Source: an uncultured Spirochaetota bacterium
Lineage (GTDB): Bacteria > Spirochaetota > Spirochaetia > SZUA-6 > Fen-1364
NCBI GenBank assembly: GCA_963781885.1
Contig: CAWAHW010000003.1
Location: 32,001 to 96,000 of the forward strand
Direction of reading: 5' to 3'
Length of the DNA stretch: 64,000 nt
A model generated the notes under the pieces. The model did no database searches, was not told the DNA's origin, and saw only the letters and a list, made by a program, of their open reading frames with translations. Below, in pieces: positions 8,079 through 44,246 of the stretch. The translations under genes were made by a program, and so were the position numbers. How positions within the stretch are numbered: position 1 is the stretch's first letter; each line of letters begins with the position of its first letter.

Positions 8079-9788
8079 ATGGAAGACAGCACACATTCGC
8101 GACGGTGCACCGGCGCCAAGGCCGTGGTGCACATGCTGGAGAAGCAGGGGGTGAAATACGTCTTCGGCCTCCCCGGCGGGGCCGCCATTCCGCTGTTCGA
8201 CGCGCTGGTGGATTCGACCATCCACCTCGTGCTCACGCGGCACGAGCAGGGCGCCACGCACATGGCGGATGGATACGCGCGCGCAACGGGCGAGCCTGCC
8301 GTCGTGCTCGTCACGTCGGGCCCCGGCGCCACCAACACGATCACCGGCATCCTCACCGCCGCGATGGATTCCGTCCCGATGGTCATCATCACGGGCCAGG
8401 CCAATGTTTCCAGCCTGGGGCTGGATGCATTCCAGGAGGCGGACGTCTCGGGCATCTCCCTTCCGGTGGTGAAGCATTCCTACCTCGTGAAGAACGCGGC
8501 CGACATCCCGCGCGTCGTGCGGGAGGCCTTCTACATCGCCCGGTCGGGAAGGCCCGGGCCCGTTCTCATCGACGTGCCCAAGGACTGCTCCAACGCGACC
8601 ATCGAGCTCCGCGAGGACGAAGAGTTCCAGCTCCCCGGCTATCACGTGCCCTCCGCCGGGGACCCCGCGCAGATCGCCTGCGCGGCGGGCATGCTGCACA
8701 AGGCGAAACGGCCCATCCTGCTCGTCGGCCACGGCGCGGTCATTTCGGGCGCCGGGGCCGAGCTGCGCACGCTCGCGGAGACAATGCGCATTCCGGTCAC
8801 GAACACGCTGCTGGGCAAGGGGGCGTTTCCCGAAACTCATTCACTGTCTATGGGCATGCTCGGCATGCACGGCACCGCCTATGCCAACAAGGCGATGGTG
8901 GACTCTGACCTGATCATGTCGGTGGGCTCGCGGTGGGATGACCGGATCACGGGGACCCCGGAGACCTTCTGCCCGGACGCGGTGAAGATACACATCGACA
9001 TCGACCCGTCGGAGATCAACAAGCTCTACACGATGGACTGCGCGATCGTGGGGGATGCACGGACGGTGCTTTCGTCCCTCAACGAGCACCTCGAGCCGGG
9101 CGACACCGCGGAATGGCTCGCGCGGATAGAAGAGTGGAAGAGACTGCATCCCCTCCATTACCACCGGCGCGGCACGTTCGAGGCCCAGTACGTCATCGAC
9201 GAGCTGTACCGGCAGACGGAAGGCAAGGCAGTCGTCACGACCGACGTCGGCCAGCACCAGATGTGGGCGGCCCAGTTCTACCGCACGGACGAGCGCTTCC
9301 ACTGGATCAGCTCGGGCGGGGCGGGGACCATGGGCTTCGGCTTCCCCGCGGCCATCGGCGCGCAGCTTGCGCGGCCGGACGCGCTGGTCTGCGCGATCGT
9401 CGGGGACGGGGGGTTCCAGATGACCATGTCCGAGCTTTCCACCGCCGTGAACCTGAAGCTGCCGCTGAAGGTGCTCATCATCAACAACCGCTACCTCGGC
9501 ATGGTGCGCCAGTGGCAGAATCTCTTCTATGAAAACCGTCTCTCCGGCGTGGACCTCCAGGGGAACCCCGACTTCGTGAAGCTCGCGGAGGCCTATGGCT
9601 GCAAGGCCATCCGCATCAAGCGCATCGGGGACGTAAAGGAAGGCATCGAAAAGGCGCTCGCCTGGAAGGACGGCCCGGTTGTCATCGATGCGGAAGTGGA
9701 AAAGGAAGACAACGTGTACCCCATGATCCCCGCGGGCGCCGCTCTCCGCGACATGCTGCTCGGCCCCCCGCGCAAGGAGCAGGCATGA
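8079..9788 (+). CDS. ilvB: acetolactate synthase large subunit
   Basis: [42 protein letters not shown] ThDP motif. Confidence 0.95.
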
Positions 9789-9791
9789 GCC

Positions 9792-9912
9792 CGGTAATAC
9801 TCATTTTGCTTCCCGGCGGGAGCGCTTCTCATTTTGCACGATATTTGGGAAGGCATTTTTGGCACCAATTCCTTTATCCGCCTACCCAGGAAGGTGCAAA
9901 ATGAGAAGCGCT
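9792..9912. mobile_element. ~121-bp non-autonomous MITE-like element, copy 1 (empty)
   Basis: Flanked by the 10-bp direct repeat GGCATGAGCC (9782-9791 / 9913-9922), which duplicates the ilvB stop/ilvN start. Contains the perfect 19-bp inverted repeat AGCGCTTCTCATTTTGCAC (9821-9839 / 9894-9912) plus an extra TACTCATTTTG copy. Colinear with 41080-41192+42677-42683. Confidence 0.75.
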
Positions 9913-9915
9913 GGC

Positions 9916-10425
9916 ATGAGCCAGACCCCTCCCACCGTGAAGCGCCACATGGTGAGCCTCTACGTGGCGAACAAGTTCGGCGTGCTGAACCGGGTGGCGC
10001 TGGTGTTCGCGCGCCGCGGCTTCAACATCGACAGCCTCGTCGTCTCGGAGGCCTTCGACCCGGCCTTCTCCCACATGAACATCGTGGCCACGGGGGACGA
10101 GAAGACCATCGTGCAGATCATCAACGCGCTCAACAAGCTCGTGGACGTCGTCCATGCGACCGACAATACTGGCAAGGACGTGATCCAGCGCGAGCTCGCC
10201 CTCGTGAAGGTGAGCTGCGCGCCGGAGAAGCGCACCGAGGTCCTCGACGTCGTGCACACCTTCAAGGGCCAGGTGGTGGACCTGGCGGAGAAGGCGCTCA
10301 CCGTCCAGGTCACGGGCAACTCGGAGAAAGTGGACGCGCTGCACCGGATGCTCGGACGCTACGGGGTCATCGAGATGGTGCGCACGGGCAAGGTCATCGT
10401 GTCGCGCGGCGAAGAGGTCACCTGA
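9916..10425 (+). CDS. ilvN: acetolactate synthase small (regulatory) subunit
   Basis: ACT domain NKFGVLNRVALVFARRGFNIDSL, RELALVKV, EMVRTG. Confidence 0.94.
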   Translation: MSQTPPTVKRHMVSLYVANKFGVLNRVALVFARRGFNIDSLVVSEAFDPAFSHMNIVATGDEKTIVQIINALNKLVDVVHATDNTGKDVIQRELALVKVSCAPEKRTEVLDVVHTFKGQVVDLAEKALTVQVTGNSEKVDALHRMLGRYGVIEMVRTGKVIVSRGEEVT

Positions 10426-38473: not shown

Positions 38474-39805
38474 TCAAGGGCCCGTTCCCTCCGTCGATTC
38501 CCGGAAATCCGCCAGCCTGCGGGAGACCTCATCGGGCACGCGCGCGCGCAGCCGGACGCCCTCCGCGAGGTCCTCCTGGCTTCGGACCGACCCCCGGTCG
38601 TAAACGAGCCGCACGAGGTCGTAGCGGGCGTAGGGGAGGAGCAGGCTCACGTCGACCAGGCCGTCATCGAGGAGCTTCTCCATCTTCGAGAGGAGAGCGG
38701 GCAGCCCCGCGCCCGTGCGCGCGCTGATGGAAAGGGCATGCTCGTGCGTTCCCCCGAGCACGGCCGACATGCCGCCCGCGGGCAGGAGGTCCGCCTTGTT
38801 CCAGGCGAGGAGGCGCGGGGTTGCTGCCACTTTCAACCCGCCGAGCACCGTTTCCACGGCGGCGATCTGCTCGGTCGCGTGGGGATGGGAGCCGTCGACG
38901 ACGTGCACGATGAGCGAAGCCTCCTCTATTCCTTCCAGGGTGGAGCGGAATGCCGCCACCAGGTCGTGGGGAAGCTTGCGGATGAAGCCGACGGTGTCCG
39001 TGAGAAGGGACTCCCTGCCGCCGGGCAGCGACAGGCGGCGCGTCGCGGGGTCCAGCGTCGCAAAGAGCTTGTCCTGGACGAGGACCCCCGCGTCCGTGAG
39101 CGCATTCATGAGGGAGCTTTTACCGGCATTCGTGTAGCCCACGAGGGCGATCATGGGGAGGCCGGCGCGCTGCCGGTCGTCGCGGTGGCGCAGGCGCTGA
39201 CCGCGGAGCTCCTCCAGGCCCCGCCGCAGCACGGCAATCCGTCGCCGCGCCTGCCTGCGGTCCAGCTCCAGCTGCGTCTCGCCGGGTCCGCGCAGCCCCA
39301 CGGGGCCCGCACCCGAACCGCCGACCTGTTGGGAAAGACCCAACCGCATGCCCGCCAGGCGCGGAAGCAGGTATTGGTACTGCGCGAGCTCCACCTGCAG
39401 CTTGCCTTCCCGCGAGTGCGCGTGCTGACCGAATATGTCGAGGATGAGCCGTGTGCGGTCGATGACGCGGATGCCTTCGCCGAGCCCCTCTTCGAGCTTC
39501 CGCTGCTGTCCCGGCGAAAGCTCGTCATCGAAGAGCACGTAGCGCGCGTTGCACGAATCCACGAGCTCCTTCACCTCCTGGACTTTTCCCGAACCGATCC
39601 AGGTGCGGGCGTTCGGCCGTCCGAGCTTCTGCCAGGTGGCGCCGGCAACCGATAGGCCGGCGGTTTCGGCGAGCTTGCCAAGCTCGTCAAGGGAATCCTT
39701 GATGCTCCACGTTGAGGTGGCGTCTTTCAGCTCGACGCCGACCAGGACGGCAAGGTCTCCGGGCCCCGGACCCATCGCTTCCTGGGTGAGAAAGTCTTTC
39801 TGCAT
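38474..39805 (-). CDS. hflX: ribosome-splitting GTPase HflX
   Basis: GPGETQLELDRR, GYTNAGKS, LFATLD, DTVGFI, NKAD. Confidence 0.95.
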   Translation of the reverse strand: MQKDFLTQEAMGPGPGDLAVLVGVELKDATSTWSIKDSLDELGKLAETAGLSVAGATWQKLGRPNARTWIGSGKVQEVKELVDSCNARYVLFDDELSPGQQRKLEEGLGEGIRVIDRTRLILDIFGQHAHSREGKLQVELAQYQYLLPRLAGMRLGLSQQVGGSGAGPVGLRGPGETQLELDRRQARRRIAVLRRGLEELRGQRLRHRDDRQRAGLPMIALVGYTNAGKSSLMNALTDAGVLVQDKLFATLDPATRRLSLPGGRESLLTDTVGFIRKLPHDLVAAFRSTLEGIEEASLIVHVVDGSHPHATEQIAAVETVLGGLKVAATPRLLAWNKADLLPAGGMSAVLGGTHEHALSISARTGAGLPALLSKMEKLLDDGLVDVSLLLPYARYDLVRLVYDRGSVRSQEDLAEGVRLRARVPDEVSRRLADFRESTEGTGP

Positions 39806-39826
39806 GCTCTCCAGACAATACAGGAT

Positions 39827-41047
39827 TCAGTCCGCGGCGGCGAGCCCCGCGATGCGTCCCGTGCTCCATGCGGCCTGGAGGTTGAAGCCTCCCGTGAAAC
39901 CGTCGACGTCCAGGAGCTCGCCGCAGAAGAAGAGGCCGGGCACGATCCGCGATTCCATGCTCCGCTGGTCCACCTCCGTCAGGTCCACCCCACCGGCAGT
40001 CACCATCTCCTCCCCCTTGTCGCGGTCGACGATCGTGAGCGGCAGCCGGTCCATCAGCTCGACGAGCGACTTCCTTTGCGCGCGCGTGAGCACGGAGGCC
40101 GCGGCATCAGGGGAGATGCCGGCCAGCTCCAGGACCGTCTGGGCAAGGGATCGCGGCATGAGACCGCGCAGCGTGGAGAGGATCTGCTGTCGCGGCCTGT
40201 CGCGGACGGCGTCCATCAACCGGCTTTCGATGGCCTGCCGGTCGTGATCCTCCAGCACGGAAAGCCGCAGTTGCAACGGCGCGCGAGGGGACAGGGGAAG
40301 AAAGGCGCAGCGCGAGGAGACGCGGAACACGACGGGCCCTGAAATGCCTTTGTGCGTGAAAACAAGGCCGCCAGTCTCCTGCAGCGGCCGCATCCCCTCG
40401 GGATGGGCATCGACGCGCGCCCGGGGCAGCGACAGGCCCGCAAGACGCCCCGGCCAGGATTCCGCCGCGGTGAGACCCGTCAGCGCCGGGGCAAGAGGGG
40501 TCACCCGGTGACCGAGGGCCAGCGCGAGGCCGTAGCCCGAGCCCCGCGCATTCCGCCAGTCCCCTCCCGTGGCGAGGACGACGCGGTCGAAAGGTTCTTT
40601 CCCGCGCGGCGTTGCAACCAGAAAGCCCTCCGGCGCGCGGGCGATCGACGTGATCGGCTGCCGCGCGGAGATCTTCACGCCCGCCGCGTGCGCCTGTCCC
40701 TGGAGAAGGTCCCGCACGTCCTGTGCCTTGCCGGACCGGGGAAAGATCCTTCCTTCCTCCTCCTCCACGAGCGGCAATCCGCGGGAGCGGAACCAGTCCA
40801 TGGTCTCCGTCGGGCCGAAACGGGAAAAGGCTGAAAGGAGAAAGCTTCCGCCGCGCGGATAATGTGCCGCCATTCGCTTCCCTTCCGATGAGGCATTCGT
40901 GAGATTGCAGCGGCCGCCGCCGGTCCTCAGGATCGTCGCAAGGGGAACGGCCGCGTCGAAAACAAAGACGGCGGCGCCCTTCTCCTGCGCGGCAAGAGCG
41001 GCCATGATTCCCGCGGGCCCGGCGCCCGCCACGGCAATGCGCGGCAT
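39827..41047 (-). CDS. HI0933/YhiN (BaiN-like) NAD(P)/FAD-dependent oxidoreductase
   Basis: GAGPAG, TGGGRCNLTN, GRIFP, FTHKGISGP, VTAGGV, DVDGFTGGFNLQAAWSTG. Confidence 0.9.
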   Translation of the reverse strand: MPRIAVAGAGPAGIMAALAAQEKGAAVFVFDAAVPLATILRTGGGRCNLTNASSEGKRMAAHYPRGGSFLLSAFSRFGPTETMDWFRSRGLPLVEEEEGRIFPRSGKAQDVRDLLQGQAHAAGVKISARQPITSIARAPEGFLVATPRGKEPFDRVVLATGGDWRNARGSGYGLALALGHRVTPLAPALTGLTAAESWPGRLAGLSLPRARVDAHPEGMRPLQETGGLVFTHKGISGPVVFRVSSRCAFLPLSPRAPLQLRLSVLEDHDRQAIESRLMDAVRDRPRQQILSTLRGLMPRSLAQTVLELAGISPDAAASVLTRAQRKSLVELMDRLPLTIVDRDKGEEMVTAGGVDLTEVDQRSMESRIVPGLFFCGELLDVDGFTGGFNLQAAWSTGRIAGLAAAD

Positions 41048-41295
41048 GGGAGGAGTGTAGCAGGCCTGTTCTGCCGATAGCAATTCTCATTATGGTGACC
41101 GAGGGACGCAGTTCTCATTTTGTTCCCATGGTAGAAGGGCTTTTTTCATATGAAAGTGCCCGCCCGTCAGCTCCGGATGGTCCAAAATGAGACAATATGA
41201 AGTGCCCCCAGGTGGTTGCTACAACGTGGATCGGCCGTATCATGAGATTGGCGTCTCGATGCGGCACGCCACAAACAACGCACAAGGGGGCAGTC

Positions 41296-42390
41296 ATGGG
41301 TATTGTACATTACGTTGGCATGGACGTCGACAAAGAAAAGATCGCCATAGCGATCCTGAGCGGGCGCGATCAGAAGCCGAGGGCCGAGACGGTGATTCGC
41401 AATGAAAAGAGCGTAATCCAGGCCTATTTCAAGAAGCTCCAGTCCGCGGGGGACCTGGTGACATGCTACGAGGCGGGATGTCTAGGGTATTCCCTGTATC
41501 GACAATTGACGGAACTGGGTGTGCCGTGTGCGGTGCTGGCTCCGTCTCAGATTCCACATCGTCCGGGAGATCGCATAAAGACCGATAGAAGGGACGCTGT
41601 GATGCTTGCTCGCGCACTTCGGAGCGGGGATGTGAGTGCCGTTCATGTACCCACGCGGGAAGACGAAGCGGTTCGCGACTATCTACGAATGCTGGAGGAC
41701 ATGAAGTCCGATCTGCGCAAGGCCAAGCAGCGCGTGCTGGGTTTTCTTCTGCGGAGGCGGATACGTTATGAACAAGGAGCCACATGGACGCAGCCGCATC
41801 GAGCATGGTTGCAGGCTCTTGAGTTGGAGGATCCGCTGGAGCAGTTGACTCTCACCGAGTACCGCTGCCAAGTCGACGAGCTGGAGGAGAAGTGTCGGCG
41901 GATCAAGGCGGGCATCGAAGAGATCGCGGCACGTAAAAGCTATGCCGAACCTGTAGCCAAGCTGAAGGCGTTCAAGGGCGTGGAGACGCTGATCGCCTTG
42001 TCGCTTGTTTCGGAGATCGGGGACTTTCGGCGCTTTGCAGGTGCGGATCAATTCATGGCGTTTTTGGGGTTGGTGCCCTCCGAGCGATCCAGCGGAAACA
42101 AGAGGCGCTTGGGAGGAATCACAAAGGCGGGTAATTCCCACCTGCGCAAACTTCTGGTGGAGGCCGCCTGGCAATACCGCAGCTACCATCCCAGTAGCAC
42201 TCGGTTGATGAAACGACGCGAGGGTCTTTCTCCATCCTTGGTCAGCTATGCCAACCGTGCGTGCAGGCGGCTAAACAAGAAATTTCTGCGTCTGCTTTTT
42301 CGCGGCAAAGCTTCTCAGACCGTGGTGACGGCGGTGGCGCGAGAGCTCTCGGGGTTCCTGTGGGGCGCGATGGTTGATCGGGTGGCTTGA
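41296..42390 (+). CDS. IS110-family DEDD transposase/recombinase
   Basis: YVGMDVDK, CYEAG, IKTDRRDA (DEDD), GLVPSERSSG...GGITKAGN..LR..LVEAAW, VTAVAREL. Confidence 0.95.
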   Translation: MGIVHYVGMDVDKEKIAIAILSGRDQKPRAETVIRNEKSVIQAYFKKLQSAGDLVTCYEAGCLGYSLYRQLTELGVPCAVLAPSQIPHRPGDRIKTDRRDAVMLARALRSGDVSAVHVPTREDEAVRDYLRMLEDMKSDLRKAKQRVLGFLLRRRIRYEQGATWTQPHRAWLQALELEDPLEQLTLTEYRCQVDELEEKCRRIKAGIEEIAARKSYAEPVAKLKAFKGVETLIALSLVSEIGDFRRFAGADQFMAFLGLVPSERSSGNKRRLGGITKAGNSHLRKLLVEAAWQYRSYHPSSTRLMKRREGLSPSLVSYANRACRRLNKKFLRLLFRGKASQTVVTAVARELSGFLWGAMVDRVA

Positions 42391-42439
42391 GGAGGCTGCG
42401 TATGCAATCGAGGCAACCGGGACGGATGGGGAAGGTTCG

Positions 42440-42580
42440 TGGCGAACGGAGAATCCTCGAGCGGTTCTGCAGGCAGACTATGGTCTGATCCTGGTAATGA
42501 GACGGAGGCAAGCTCCTGACGATCACATTGGCCTGCGGTAACCAATCCACGCATATCAGACTGGTCGATCGTCGGTTATG
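42440..42580 (+). ncRNA. putative bridge/seek RNA of the IS (target- and donor-binding loops)
   Basis: Loop 1: CCTC..AGCGGTTCT..CAGG-CAGAC(TATG)GTCTG-CCTG..AATGAGA..GAGG, matching both strands of the target. Loop 2: closed by GACGATC/GATCGTC and containing CATATCAGAC, identical to the circle junction. Ends are approximate. Confidence 0.75.
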
Positions 42581-42935
42581 CCCTTCTCCATCTCTTCGGG
42601 TTGGCCTCGATGTTCAGAAGGAGTTCTAAAGAAAAAAGGAGGCTTTTAGAGCTTGACGGGGGCACATCATATCAGAACTGCTGTGTTCTGCCGATACACT
42701 ACTTGACGGGGGTTGGGGAAAATATGCCCGGGAGTGGAAATGTCGCCCCGGAAAGCATGAAACCTCTTGCATTTGTTTTTTGACTGTAGTATGCATTGCA
42801 AAGAGACGAGGGGAGGGGACCCGCCTTTCGCGCGCTATCCCGGAGGCACGACAGGACGAACAGACCGCCCGCTCAGACACCAAAGGGGCATGGCCCCTTG
42901 CGAATGCCTCATGAGATGAAGGAGTTCCGACAGAA

Positions 42936-44246
42936 ATGGAAACCAAAGTGCTGAGCACTGAGGAGGCAGAACCTCCAGGTACAATGCCCGTAGTCCAGGA
43001 GTTTGCCGAACTGGCCGGCATCCGGACTACGATGACCCGGTTCACGTCCTATTCCCGCCCGAGAAAGCCTTCGCCCGTTGCGCCCCGCTTCACCGTTTCC
43101 AATCGATCCGAAGAGTTCCGCGCGCGCTTCTTTCCCCTTGCCACGGCCGCCGAATGGTGCGACTGGCGCTGGCAGCTGCGAAACCGCGTCCGCTCGCTCG
43201 AGGACCTGGAAAAGATGGTGCGGCTCACACAGGACGAGCGCACGGCGATCGCCCGGCACACCGGATCGCTGCCTTTCGCCATCACTCCGTACTACCTGAG
43301 CCTTGTCGACCCCGACAACGCGGAACAGCCGCTGCGCCGTACGATGATCCCGGTAACGGATGAATACCTGCGTATGCCGGGTGAGGCCGCGGATCCGCTG
43401 GGTGAGGATGACGACAGCCCGGTGCCCTGCATCGTGCATCGCTATCCGGACAGGGCCCTCTTCCTTGTCGCCAACTCCTGCGCCTCCAACTGCCGCTACT
43501 GCACGCGGTCGCGCATGGTGGAAAACCCCAAGAACGACAGCATCTTCTTCCAGTCGCAGTGGGAAGAGGCCATTTCCTACATCGAAAGCCACCCCGAGAT
43601 CCGCGACGTGCTACTCTCCGGGGGCGATCCCCTGACGCTCTCCGACGAGAAGCTGGACTGGCTTCTCTCGCGGCTGCACCGCATCCCCCACGTGGAGTTC
43701 CTCCGCATCGGGACCAAGGCGCCCGTGGTGATGCCCCAGCGGATCACGACCTCGCTCCTGCGCGTGCTGAAGCGCTACCATCCCCTCTGGATGAGCATCC
43801 ATTTCACGCATCCGGAGGAGCTCACGCCCGAAACCGTGGAGGCCTGCGGACGCCTGGCGGACGCCGGCATCCCCCTGGGGAGCCAGACGGTTCTGCTGGC
43901 GGGCATCAACGACACCGTGGAGGTCATGACGCGCCTCATGCACGGCCTCTTGAAGGCGCGCGTGAAGCCCTACTACCTCTACCAGTGCGACCCGATACTC
44001 GGCTCGGCGCACTTCCGCACCCCGGTCCAGAAGGGCCTGGAGATGATCCAAGGCCTGCGGGGACACACCTCGGGATACGCGGTTCCGTCGTACGTGATCG
44101 ACGCCCCCGGGGGAGGCGGCAAGATACCCCTCCTGCCCGAATACGTCGTCGGCCGCGACGGAAATGACCTCGTGCTCCGCAATTACCAGGGTCTCCTCTT
44201 CCGCTACCCGGACACGTTGGGCGCCAAACAAGAGCCCGCGACATGA
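42936..44246 (+). CDS. kamA: KamA-family radical SAM aminomutase (lysine 2,3-aminomutase-like)
   Basis: DWRWQLRN, ITPYY, HRYPDR, CASNCRYCTR, LLSGGDPL, DAPGGGGKIP (PLP lysine). Confidence 0.88.
   Translation: METKVLSTEEAEPPGTMPVVQEFAELAGIRTTMTRFTSYSRPRKPSPVAPRFTVSNRSEEFRARFFPLATAAEWCDWRWQLRNRVRSLEDLEKMVRLTQDERTAIARHTGSLPFAITPYYLSLVDPDNAEQPLRRTMIPVTDEYLRMPGEAADPLGEDDDSPVPCIVHRYPDRALFLVANSCASNCRYCTRSRMVENPKNDSIFFQSQWEEAISYIESHPEIRDVLLSGGDPLTLSDEKLDWLLSRLHRIPHVEFLRIGTKAPVVMPQRITTSLLRVLKRYHPLWMSIHFTHPEELTPETVEACGRLADAGIPLGSQTVLLAGINDTVEVMTRLMHGLLKARVKPYYLYQCDPILGSAHFRTPVQKGLEMIQGLRGHTSGYAVPSYVIDAPGGGGKIPLLPEYVVGRDGNDLVLRNYQGLLFRYPDTLGAKQEPAT

Follow-up and report, generated by a model that had tools for sequence, protein, structure and literature searches.

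A predicted RNA-guided IS1111-type insertion sequence nested in the terminal inverted repeat of a miniature transposable element in an uncultured Spirochaetota bacterium

Nested architecture of the locus

The window examined in this study is a stretch of 64,000 nucleotides from an uncultured Spirochaetota bacterium (G000:C3:32001-96000), and all positions refer to it unless a contig is named. At 41067-42696, the window contains two mobile elements, one nested in the other. The outer element is a MITE (miniature inverted-repeat transposable element) of ~120 bp, designated copy 2, and the inner element is an insertion sequence (IS) of 1484 bp for which a guide RNA is predicted. The components of the nest are listed below.

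41067-41079, no strand: left copy of a 13-bp direct repeat, outside MITE copy 2 and the IS; the stretch is single at the element-free orthologous site of the relative G005
41080-41191, + strand: left, main part of MITE copy 2, ending in the core AG (41190-41191); based on the nhmmer family of 14 copies and on alignment
41190-42676, + strand: IS of 1484 bp, assigned to the IS110 family (IS1111 type); the span includes both ambiguous AGA copies, seven full and two partial copies were compared, and empty sites define the junction
42676-42683, + strand: outer tip of the right terminal inverted repeat (TIR) of the MITE, separated from the MITE body by the IS; based on junction reading and empty copies
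42684-42696, no strand: right copy of the 13-bp direct repeat; based on junction reading and the G005 comparison

Three features lie in the main part of MITE copy 2, namely the outer left TIR, a mirror copy of the right arm in the interior, and the right TIR's inner half. The IS is located within this right TIR, 7 bp from the tip of the MITE. The left junction reads ...CCAAAATGAGA|CAATATG... at 41192/41193, and the right junction reads ...CATATCAGA|ACTGCTG at 42676/42677. Because the triplet AGA stands at both junctions (41190-41192 and 42674-42676), the boundary of the IS can be drawn in more than one way, over a range of 3 nt. Its true ends lie among the pairs from 41190-42673 up to 41193-42676, and the split adopted in a preliminary description of the window is one of four equivalents. 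Three empty MITE copies in the same genome retain the uninterrupted 13-mer target intact; therefore, the IS represents a clean insertion with no extra duplication. In the comparison with empty sites, only a 2-3-nt core is common to both IS junctions. The placement of the IS inside the right arm of copy 2, as originally described, was thus borne out by a clean junction and by the intact 13-mer of the empty copies.

Identity of the insertion sequence

The following features of the IS were used for its classification.

41197-41209, + strand: left sub-terminal inverted repeat, 13 bp; 12 of 13 positions complementary to 42658-42670
41296-42390, + strand: transposase gene, 364 amino acids, DEDD type; Pfam and NCBIfam matches above the cut-offs
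42653-42658, + strand: -35-like hexamer at the right end of the IS; conserved in relatives
42658-42670, + strand: right sub-terminal inverted repeat, 13 bp; read from the sequence

The transposase matches PF01548 with 50.3 bits (cut-off 29), PF02371 with 78.8 bits (cut-off 21.3), and the NCBIfam model NF033542, "IS110 family RNA-guided transposase", with 237.3 bits (cut-off 140). The IS110 family is characterized by a transposase that combines a DEDD/RuvC-like domain at the N-terminus with the IS116/IS110/IS902 domain at the C-terminus, and by insertion that is specific in site and orientation and lacks the multi-bp target duplication of DDE elements; this IS shows both features. According to the main text of Siddiquee et al. 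2024 (PMC11187229), sub-terminal repeats, a 3' non-coding region, and a GL-P----S/TG motif separate the IS1111 type from the IS110 type. Published criteria for the IS1111 group also include a usual length of 11-13 bp for the sub-terminal inverted repeats and asymmetric terminal extensions, 7 bp at the left end and 3 bp at the right. The IS of copy 2 has 286 nt of non-coding DNA past the transposase stop codon, compared with ~104 nt ahead of the start codon. The GL-P----SG motif is present in the translation (G-L-V-P, four residues, S-G). An exact fit to the 7-bp and 3-bp extensions would follow from the span 41190-42673, one of those allowed by the 3-nt ambiguity of the ends. From the other features, we classify the IS as a member of the IS110 family, IS1111 type. 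The nearest annotated plasmid matches to the transposase are ~46% identical and are labelled only "IS110 family transposase".

Junction promoters have been described for the IS110/IS1111 family. In the IS of copy 2, circle formation would bring the -35-like hexamer of the right end opposite a -10-like hexamer of the left end, which may function as such a promoter.

Distribution of the IS and the MITE in the genome

The genome is represented by one 4.64-Mb assembly that is ~93% complete. In this assembly, 16,000 bases read N (from G000:C4:160001 on) and cut one IS copy, and the copy counts are lower bounds. A blastn search detected seven full and two partial IS copies. One of the partial copies ends in the N run, and the other has an internal deletion of ~597 bp near its left end. 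All nine copies are inserted at the same point of the MITE and in the same orientation, with a MITE body of ~113 bp before them and a 7-bp tip after them. Mapping every IS copy against the repeat had been set beforehand as a test of the nesting, and it placed 9/9 copies inside the MITE and none outside.

An nhmmer profile built from eight occupied bodies gave 15 matches, one of them a duplicate, so that the genome holds 14 MITE copies, each of ~120 bp. Nine are occupied by the IS and five are empty. Among the empty copies, three have the exact 13-mer, one lacks a single A inside the 13-mer, and one is a divergent copy elsewhere in the window (copy 1, described below). When the right arms are classified by two adjacent variable letters, 13 are of the CT type: nine are occupied, one has the 1-nt deletion in the target, and three are intact and empty. 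Outside the MITE, the exact 13-mer occurs at a single site in the genome (C4:720262), which is unoccupied. Target duplications of 9 bp flank most MITE copies and one of 13 bp flanks copy 2, each copy having its own duplication.

Several individual copies have unusual features. MITE copy 2, with its 13-bp direct repeat in place of the 9 bp found at most other copies, lacks the usual first two bases at its left tip, and G005 holds its flanking stretch once, as a 14-nt variant form. The IS copy with the internal deletion (G000:C2:775866-776875) has lost the start of the transposase gene but retains its outermost left end and the complete region of the guide RNA. The empty MITE that lacks one A in the target (G000:C6:136180-136292) lies 2.2 kb from an oppositely oriented occupied copy; the missing A could be a scar of imprecise excision or an ordinary slip. 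At G000:C1:278040-281330, an IS-carrying MITE and the parent element of the MITE (see below) stand head to tail. The same 9-mer is present before, between, and after them; therefore, the second element landed exactly on the duplication of the first one.

Five DNA metagenome runs from two studies contain part of the stretch, and no RNA run with it was listed. Contigs from four of the runs were compared with 39800-43800. None of them spans the IS and no circle junction was found among them, and this set is uninformative on excision, polymorphism, and expression. One contig from these runs carries the flank of another IS copy.

Predicted guide RNA

We compared ten related IS, namely this one and nine from metagenome-assembled genomes (MAGs) of Spirochaetota, Pirellulales, Terriglobales, NC10, and Deferrisomatales, with amino acid identities of 45-67%. 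The ten IS have a common conserved scaffold in the 3' region. The elements predicted there are as follows.

42425-42592, + strand: predicted seekRNA or bridge RNA of ~168 nt, outer stem 42425-42435 with 42582-42592; RNAalifold on the ten relatives
42460-42468, + strand: putative target guide 1, complementary to the top strand over the core AG and the adjacent 7 nt on the right; the pair at +4 is rG:dT
42469-42494, + strand: distal hairpin of the target-binding loop, 42470-73 with 42490-93 and 42474-78 with 42483-87; both stems change in a compensatory manner across lineages
42496-42502, + strand: putative target guide 2 (AATGAGA), running in the sense of the target's left half, so that its pairing partner would be the bottom strand
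42518-42573, + strand: predicted second (donor-side) loop, closing stem 42518-24 with 42567-73, with covariation of UA to CG

RNAalifold gave 36 pairs for the ten sequences, six of them with compensatory changes. Apart from the outer stem, the consensus consists of a GGAG/CUCC stem (GCAG/CUGC in five sequences), a large internal loop closed by a CCUC/GAGG stem, and a second stem-closed loop. The single folds have the same target-loop architecture in 10/10 sequences. In the first loop, a 9-nt 5' stretch is followed by the distal hairpin and by a 7-8-nt 3' stretch. The reverse complement of guide 1 (42460-42468) is AGAACCGCT, and guide 2 repeats the 5 nt of the left flank, the core, and one further base. 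A guide RNA aimed at the right arm of the MITE had been proposed in the preliminary description, and this proposal stands, both guides being readable at 42460-42468 and 42496-42502 and 9/9 IS copies being located at that arm.

The dinucleotide AG is the sole one present at both junctions in both this IS and its relative in G018. AG is therefore taken as the putative core. The order of the guides, with the complement of the top strand first, and their overlap at the insertion point fit the rule given for IS1111-type seekRNAs in the main text of Siddiquee et al. 2024 (PMC11187229). A second loop in RNAs of this kind reads both ends of the IS. In the donor-side loop predicted here, the 9 nt at 42552-42560 repeat the final bases of the right end, and only 4 nt could be matched for the left end. 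The donor-loop base after the right-end match appeared to covary with the first flank base (here, in G018, and in L073); this candidate was dropped, as L065-67 break the pattern.

The relatives allow the guides to be compared with different targets. The equivalent of guide 1 matches its own right flank at 7/7 positions in L066, in L067, and in the L068/69/70 group, which represent three different targets. In this IS, the match is 6/7 with the wobble in addition, and guide 1 matches the flanks of other lineages at a lower level. The left ends of L067 and L070 were taken from directly read junctions and not from a fuzzy pattern, and the left-flank pattern table was unused for both. When the 3' non-coding region was shuffled as mononucleotides, both guide matches in order were obtained in 0/20,000 shuffles, while single matches were obtained in 327 and 360 of the 20,000.

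Target recognition and alternative explanations

We propose that the DEDD transposase and the ~168-nt guide RNA encoded past its gene would drive RNA-guided insertion into the 13-bp site. One side of the target loop would pair with the top strand over the core AG and the 7 nt that follow on the right, one of these pairs being an rG:dT wobble, and the other side would pair with the bottom strand over the 5 nt to the left and the core. On this view, the IS entered diverged MITE copies that were already in place, one after another, and it now occupies 9/13 of the matching subfamily; each insertion severs the MITE tip from its body. We estimate a probability of roughly 85% that the element is an RNA-guided IS1111-type IS that recombines site-specifically into one 13-bp site in the right TIR of the MITE. 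This proposal draws on the observed anatomy, the genome-wide distribution, the order of events (see below), the covarying stems of the RNA, and the agreement of guide 1 with changing right flanks among the relatives. We infer that the RNA is made and is bound by the transposase, as well as the circular intermediate, the junction promoter, and the mismatch rules.

How strictly the guide reads its target bears on the other MITE copy of the window.

9792-9913, + strand: MITE copy 1, GC subfamily, empty; 9-bp duplication at 9783-9791 and 9914-9922; site 9900-9912, core 9904-9905

The occupied site and copy 1 (9900-9912) had each been described as one letter off the target implied by the guide, and this proved correct letter for letter. 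From this equality, it had been suggested that the guide resembles a consensus for the MITE family and that copy 1 is an equally good target that is merely unused. The G of the guide at +4 can indeed pair with the pyrimidine that is present there in all five listed subfamilies. However, the two mismatches differ in kind. At occupied sites of the CT type, the G of the guide at +4 stands opposite T, which is an rG:dT wobble, whereas the G at +3 in copy 1 faces a G of the guide and is a true mismatch. In the main text of Durrant et al. 2024 (PMC11208160), the common natural target of IS621 likewise differs from the guide-encoded one at one position, an rG:dT pair, and the tolerance of IS621 for mismatches is otherwise low. 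The arms of the MITE in five genus members carry CT, GC, AC, GT, or TC at the two adjacent variable letters, and the CC variant is absent among the matches listed, beyond which there are 121 further matches. We therefore regard a consensus guide as unlikely. The difference of C and T at the occupied sites is more simply read as a wobble with the CT subfamily.

Copy 1 is the only MITE of the GC subfamily in this genome, and it is empty. Its locus was matched in 19 of 20 other genomes of the genus. Copy 1 is absent from these as judged by flank spacing, the flank pairs read being too close to hold a 122-bp element, and at the sequence level in G005, the only genome in which the junction was read. 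With the G-G mismatch at +3, membership in another subfamily, and no sign of usability in these comparisons, the earlier prediction of 9904-9906 as an unused insertion site is a weak one. The two letters are the same in both arms of copy 1; listed pairs of arms mostly agree, and at least two differ (G019:C58 and G019:C66). In G018, there are 102 matches to the arm pattern, all of the TC type among the matches listed.

A second alternative is that the site is chosen by the transposase itself or by DNA structure, such as a hairpin of the MITE arm, and that the matches in the 3' region are a leftover or a coincidence. The mirror of the right arm inside every MITE (41105-41120 in copy 2) departs from the target at +7 alone, where A replaces T, and its disuse, together with that of the non-MITE 13-mer, hints at context beyond 13 nt. 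In addition, the base at +8 is G at 9/9 occupied sites and T at 3/4 unoccupied exact 13-mers (post hoc Fisher p ~0.014), and the guide does not obviously read this position. Recognition thus probably extends beyond the 13-nt pairing that can be drawn, or is stricter than it. Against a choice without RNA, the scaffold is conserved across three other target classes in which guide 1 has changed along with the right flank, and none of the 20,000 shuffles reproduced both guides. RNA dependence has also been demonstrated experimentally for four IS1111-type members, according to the published main text. We consider this alternative very improbable.

Some results nevertheless weigh against RNA-guided insertion as proposed above. 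None of the 14 internal mirror sites is occupied, and three intact MITE arms and the 13-mer at C4:720262 are empty although they would be usable by the 13-nt reading. The guide of L065 matches its own right flank at only 3/7 positions. Minimum free energy folding of the complete 3' region, like that of a piece of 171 nt, did no better than folding of shuffled sequences (z of -1.8 and +0.85), the comparative folds being relied on instead, and a scan of 40900-42900 against Rfam gave no match at E values up to 1. In addition, all of these results come from one assembly, ~93% complete and with 16 kb reading N.

The MITE and its parent element

The outer element is short and non-coding, has TIRs and target duplications, is present in 14 copies, and is missing from the orthologous sites of both window copies in G005. 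A candidate parent IS of 1653 bp is present in three copies in this genome (C4:220865-222517, C6:77551-79203, and C1:278052-279704), two of which are identical and one of which is 99.6% identical. Its 18-bp ends match the left end of the MITE at 16/18 positions, and it generates a 9-bp duplication as the MITE does. It encodes a protein of 437 amino acids whose matches to Pfam DDE families are below the cut-offs. In tblastn searches, this protein matched "ISNCY family transposase" proteins of cyanobacterial plasmids with ~45% identity. By the likeness of ends and duplications, the MITE is a non-autonomous derivative of this 1653-bp DDE IS. The ends of the parent IS itself are at least two letters off the target of the guided IS and are unoccupied, and one of them has CG in place of the core AG.

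Order of insertion

The seven full IS copies differ pairwise by 0-2 of 1484 nt. The occupied MITE bodies are 65-95.5% identical, with a median of 76.8% (36 pairs), and both sequence types of the MITE include occupied and empty copies. Nearly identical IS copies thus lie in diverged MITE parts that have their own duplications; therefore, the IS entered old MITEs one by one.

A different history would be that the IS entered one MITE once and that the resulting 1.6-kb composite was then spread by the DDE transposase of the parent IS. The composite is approximately of the size of the parent IS, it keeps both outer tips, and it is flanked in each case by a DDE-type duplication. Furthermore, the orthologous site of the window locus in G005 has neither the MITE nor the IS, so this locus alone cannot order the events. 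Spread as a composite would have left the MITE parts identical. Such co-mobility is difficult to reconcile with the divergence of the occupied MITE parts compared with the IS copies and with the mixture of occupied and empty copies in both sequence types. Moreover, with the IS inserted 7 bp from the tip of the right TIR, this end should be harder to recognize. We judge co-mobility to be highly unlikely, and stepwise entry of the guided IS into existing MITE copies is preferred.

The MITE is also found outside this genome. MITE matches with no IS match were obtained in the relatives G005 (at least 21 matches) and G019 (eight matches); G005 is only 69% complete, and the IS there is "not found" rather than "absent". 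At the G005 sites orthologous to both window copies, there is no MITE and no IS, and the duplicated stretch occurs once. The MITE has moved after the split from G005, which is the nearest relative. No sign of recent MITE bursts was observed in this genome. As judged from these comparisons, the MITE is an element that exists independently of the IS. The idea that the ~120-bp repeat is part of a longer IS110-type element, as its presence before every IS copy might suggest, is refuted by the five empty copies with their own duplications and is further contradicted by the repeat matches in relatives with no IS match, by the autonomous DDE IS with the same ends and the same 9-bp duplication, and by the element-free orthologous sites in G005.

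Relatives of the IS in other lineages

The protein of the parent DDE IS has tblastn matches in the DNA beside two of the IS relatives, in L065 (57% identity over 390 amino acids) and in L067 (47% over 188 amino acids), which are a Spirochaetaceae MAG and a Pirellulales MAG. The DNA to the left of the IS relative resembles the inner part of the left end of the DDE IS in L065 and, as we read it, in L067 too, which places both relatives at the corresponding point of that end. In L067, the 7 nt to the right of the IS relative correspond to the tip of the DDE IS end, where the guide match is 7/7. The relatives L068-70 are nearly identical to one another and are located 12 nt inside another element of ~115 bp with inverted ends. 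They come from a Terriglobales MAG (L068), a Spirochaetota MAG (L069), and an NC10 MAG (L070), that is, from three phyla, which suggests that the IS, the small element, or both were transferred recently. The flank of L066 resembles a transposon end, but no inverted partner was found, nor a DDE homologue within 1.5 kb; it was not counted as a transposon end.

No further insertion sites of the IS relatives were found, each being single-copy in the five MAGs searched. Among 400 further genomes of the phylum, besides this genome's own, only transposases of 46-50% identity were detected.

The guide of this IS has G at two positions where the relatives have A. A guide G can pair with either pyrimidine by way of an rG:dT wobble and hence with several end variants. 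Taken together, the few loci available tentatively suggest a lineage of RNA-guided IS1111-type elements that would live as hyperparasites of transposon ends across phyla, their guides drifting with the end variants; we regard this as possible but short of probable. If true, a guided IS may disable its host transposon by severing the tip.

Comparison with known systems

Nested parasitism is a known habit of the IS110/IS1111 family, and MITEs, repetitive extragenic palindromic sequences (REPs), and transposon ends are already published targets. IS621, ISPa11, and ISPpu9 have been described as targeting REPs, and ISKpn4 and ISPst6 as targeting attC sites. Specific to the present case are the terminal repeat of a MITE as the target, a readable guide with a wobble, and an identified parent IS. 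In a limited literature search, we found no IS110/IS1111 element in a MITE terminal repeat, and the supplementary data of Siddiquee et al. 2024 (target logos for more than 300 IS) and of Durrant et al. 2024 may hold such cases.

The closest precedent concerns the founding IS1111 of Coxiella burnetii, which is inserted in QMITE2 copies (20/21 IS copies in one strain; Wachter et al. 2018, PMC5896051). There, too, an IS1111-type element lies in MITE copies, the direct repeats are of variable length (7-11 nt), and occupied and empty copies date the insertions. In contrast to our case, the target is a REP-like palindrome inside the MITE and not the TIR, and the passages of that paper (PMC5896051) used here offer no guide RNA reading. 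The two transposases are presumably distant.

IS4321 and IS5075 reportedly target the ends of Tn21-family transposons. They resemble the present element in that they are of the IS1111 type, have sub-terminal repeats, and insert with a single orientation at one set position within another transposon's TIR. Their host, however, is a large plasmid transposon of the Tn3 family and not a MITE or a small IS.

ISEc11, ISKpn4, ISPst6, and ISPa11, as described in the main text of Siddiquee et al. 2024 (PMC11187229), encode their RNA past the transposase gene. Their RNAs have the complement of the top strand before the match to the bottom strand, and the two overlap in the target. The GL-P----S/TG motif is common to these elements and to this IS. 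Their targets are different, being a short linear site, attC sites, and REPs. In addition, our transposase has 364 amino acids compared with 330-350 quoted for the IS1111 type, and our RNA is a predicted one. The same text (PMC11187229) gives ISEc11 and ISXne4 as a case of natural retargeting by a change of the guide stretches only.

IS621 (Durrant et al. 2024, PMC11208160, main text) shares the two-loop RNA, a dinucleotide core, one rG:dT pair at the natural target, and a genomic repeat (REP) as the target. It differs in that the RNA of the IS110 group lies ahead of the gene with the guide order reversed, and its core is CT in place of the putative AG of our IS.

The biology of the IS110/IS1111 family as known is unchanged by this finding. 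The guide, the target, the empty sites, the autonomous parent of the target, and the retargeted relatives are all readable from sequence, which makes the system a convenient test bed. It could serve for questions of mismatch and wobble in IS1111-type guides, on which less work exists than for IS621, for the reach of recognition beyond 13 paired bases, and for the way in which one transposon may check another by cutting its ends.

Genomic setting of the two MITE copies

MITE copy 2 is located between a gene for an aminoacetone-oxidase-family flavoprotein and a gene for a KamA-family radical-SAM protein, and copy 1 is located between the genes for the large and small subunits of acetolactate synthase. 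The small repeat had been interpreted as a renewable intergenic safe harbour for the IS. The intergenic part of this interpretation agrees with both window copies, and a safe harbour is a reasonable inference for these two loci. The renewable part fared less well. Since the MITE copies are old and an IS already lies in nine of the 13 matching arms, the target pool looks nearly exhausted and not renewed. Insertion of the IS should also harm the MITE, as it parts the tip from the body.

Copy 1 with its duplication (9783-9922) sits exactly in the ATGA overlap of the stop and start codons of the two acetolactate synthase subunit genes. Through the 9-bp duplication, a stop codon is re-formed at one edge of the element and a start codon at the opposite edge, and both genes are intact, now 127 nt apart. 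In G005, the ATGA overlap is undisturbed and the 9-mer is present once.

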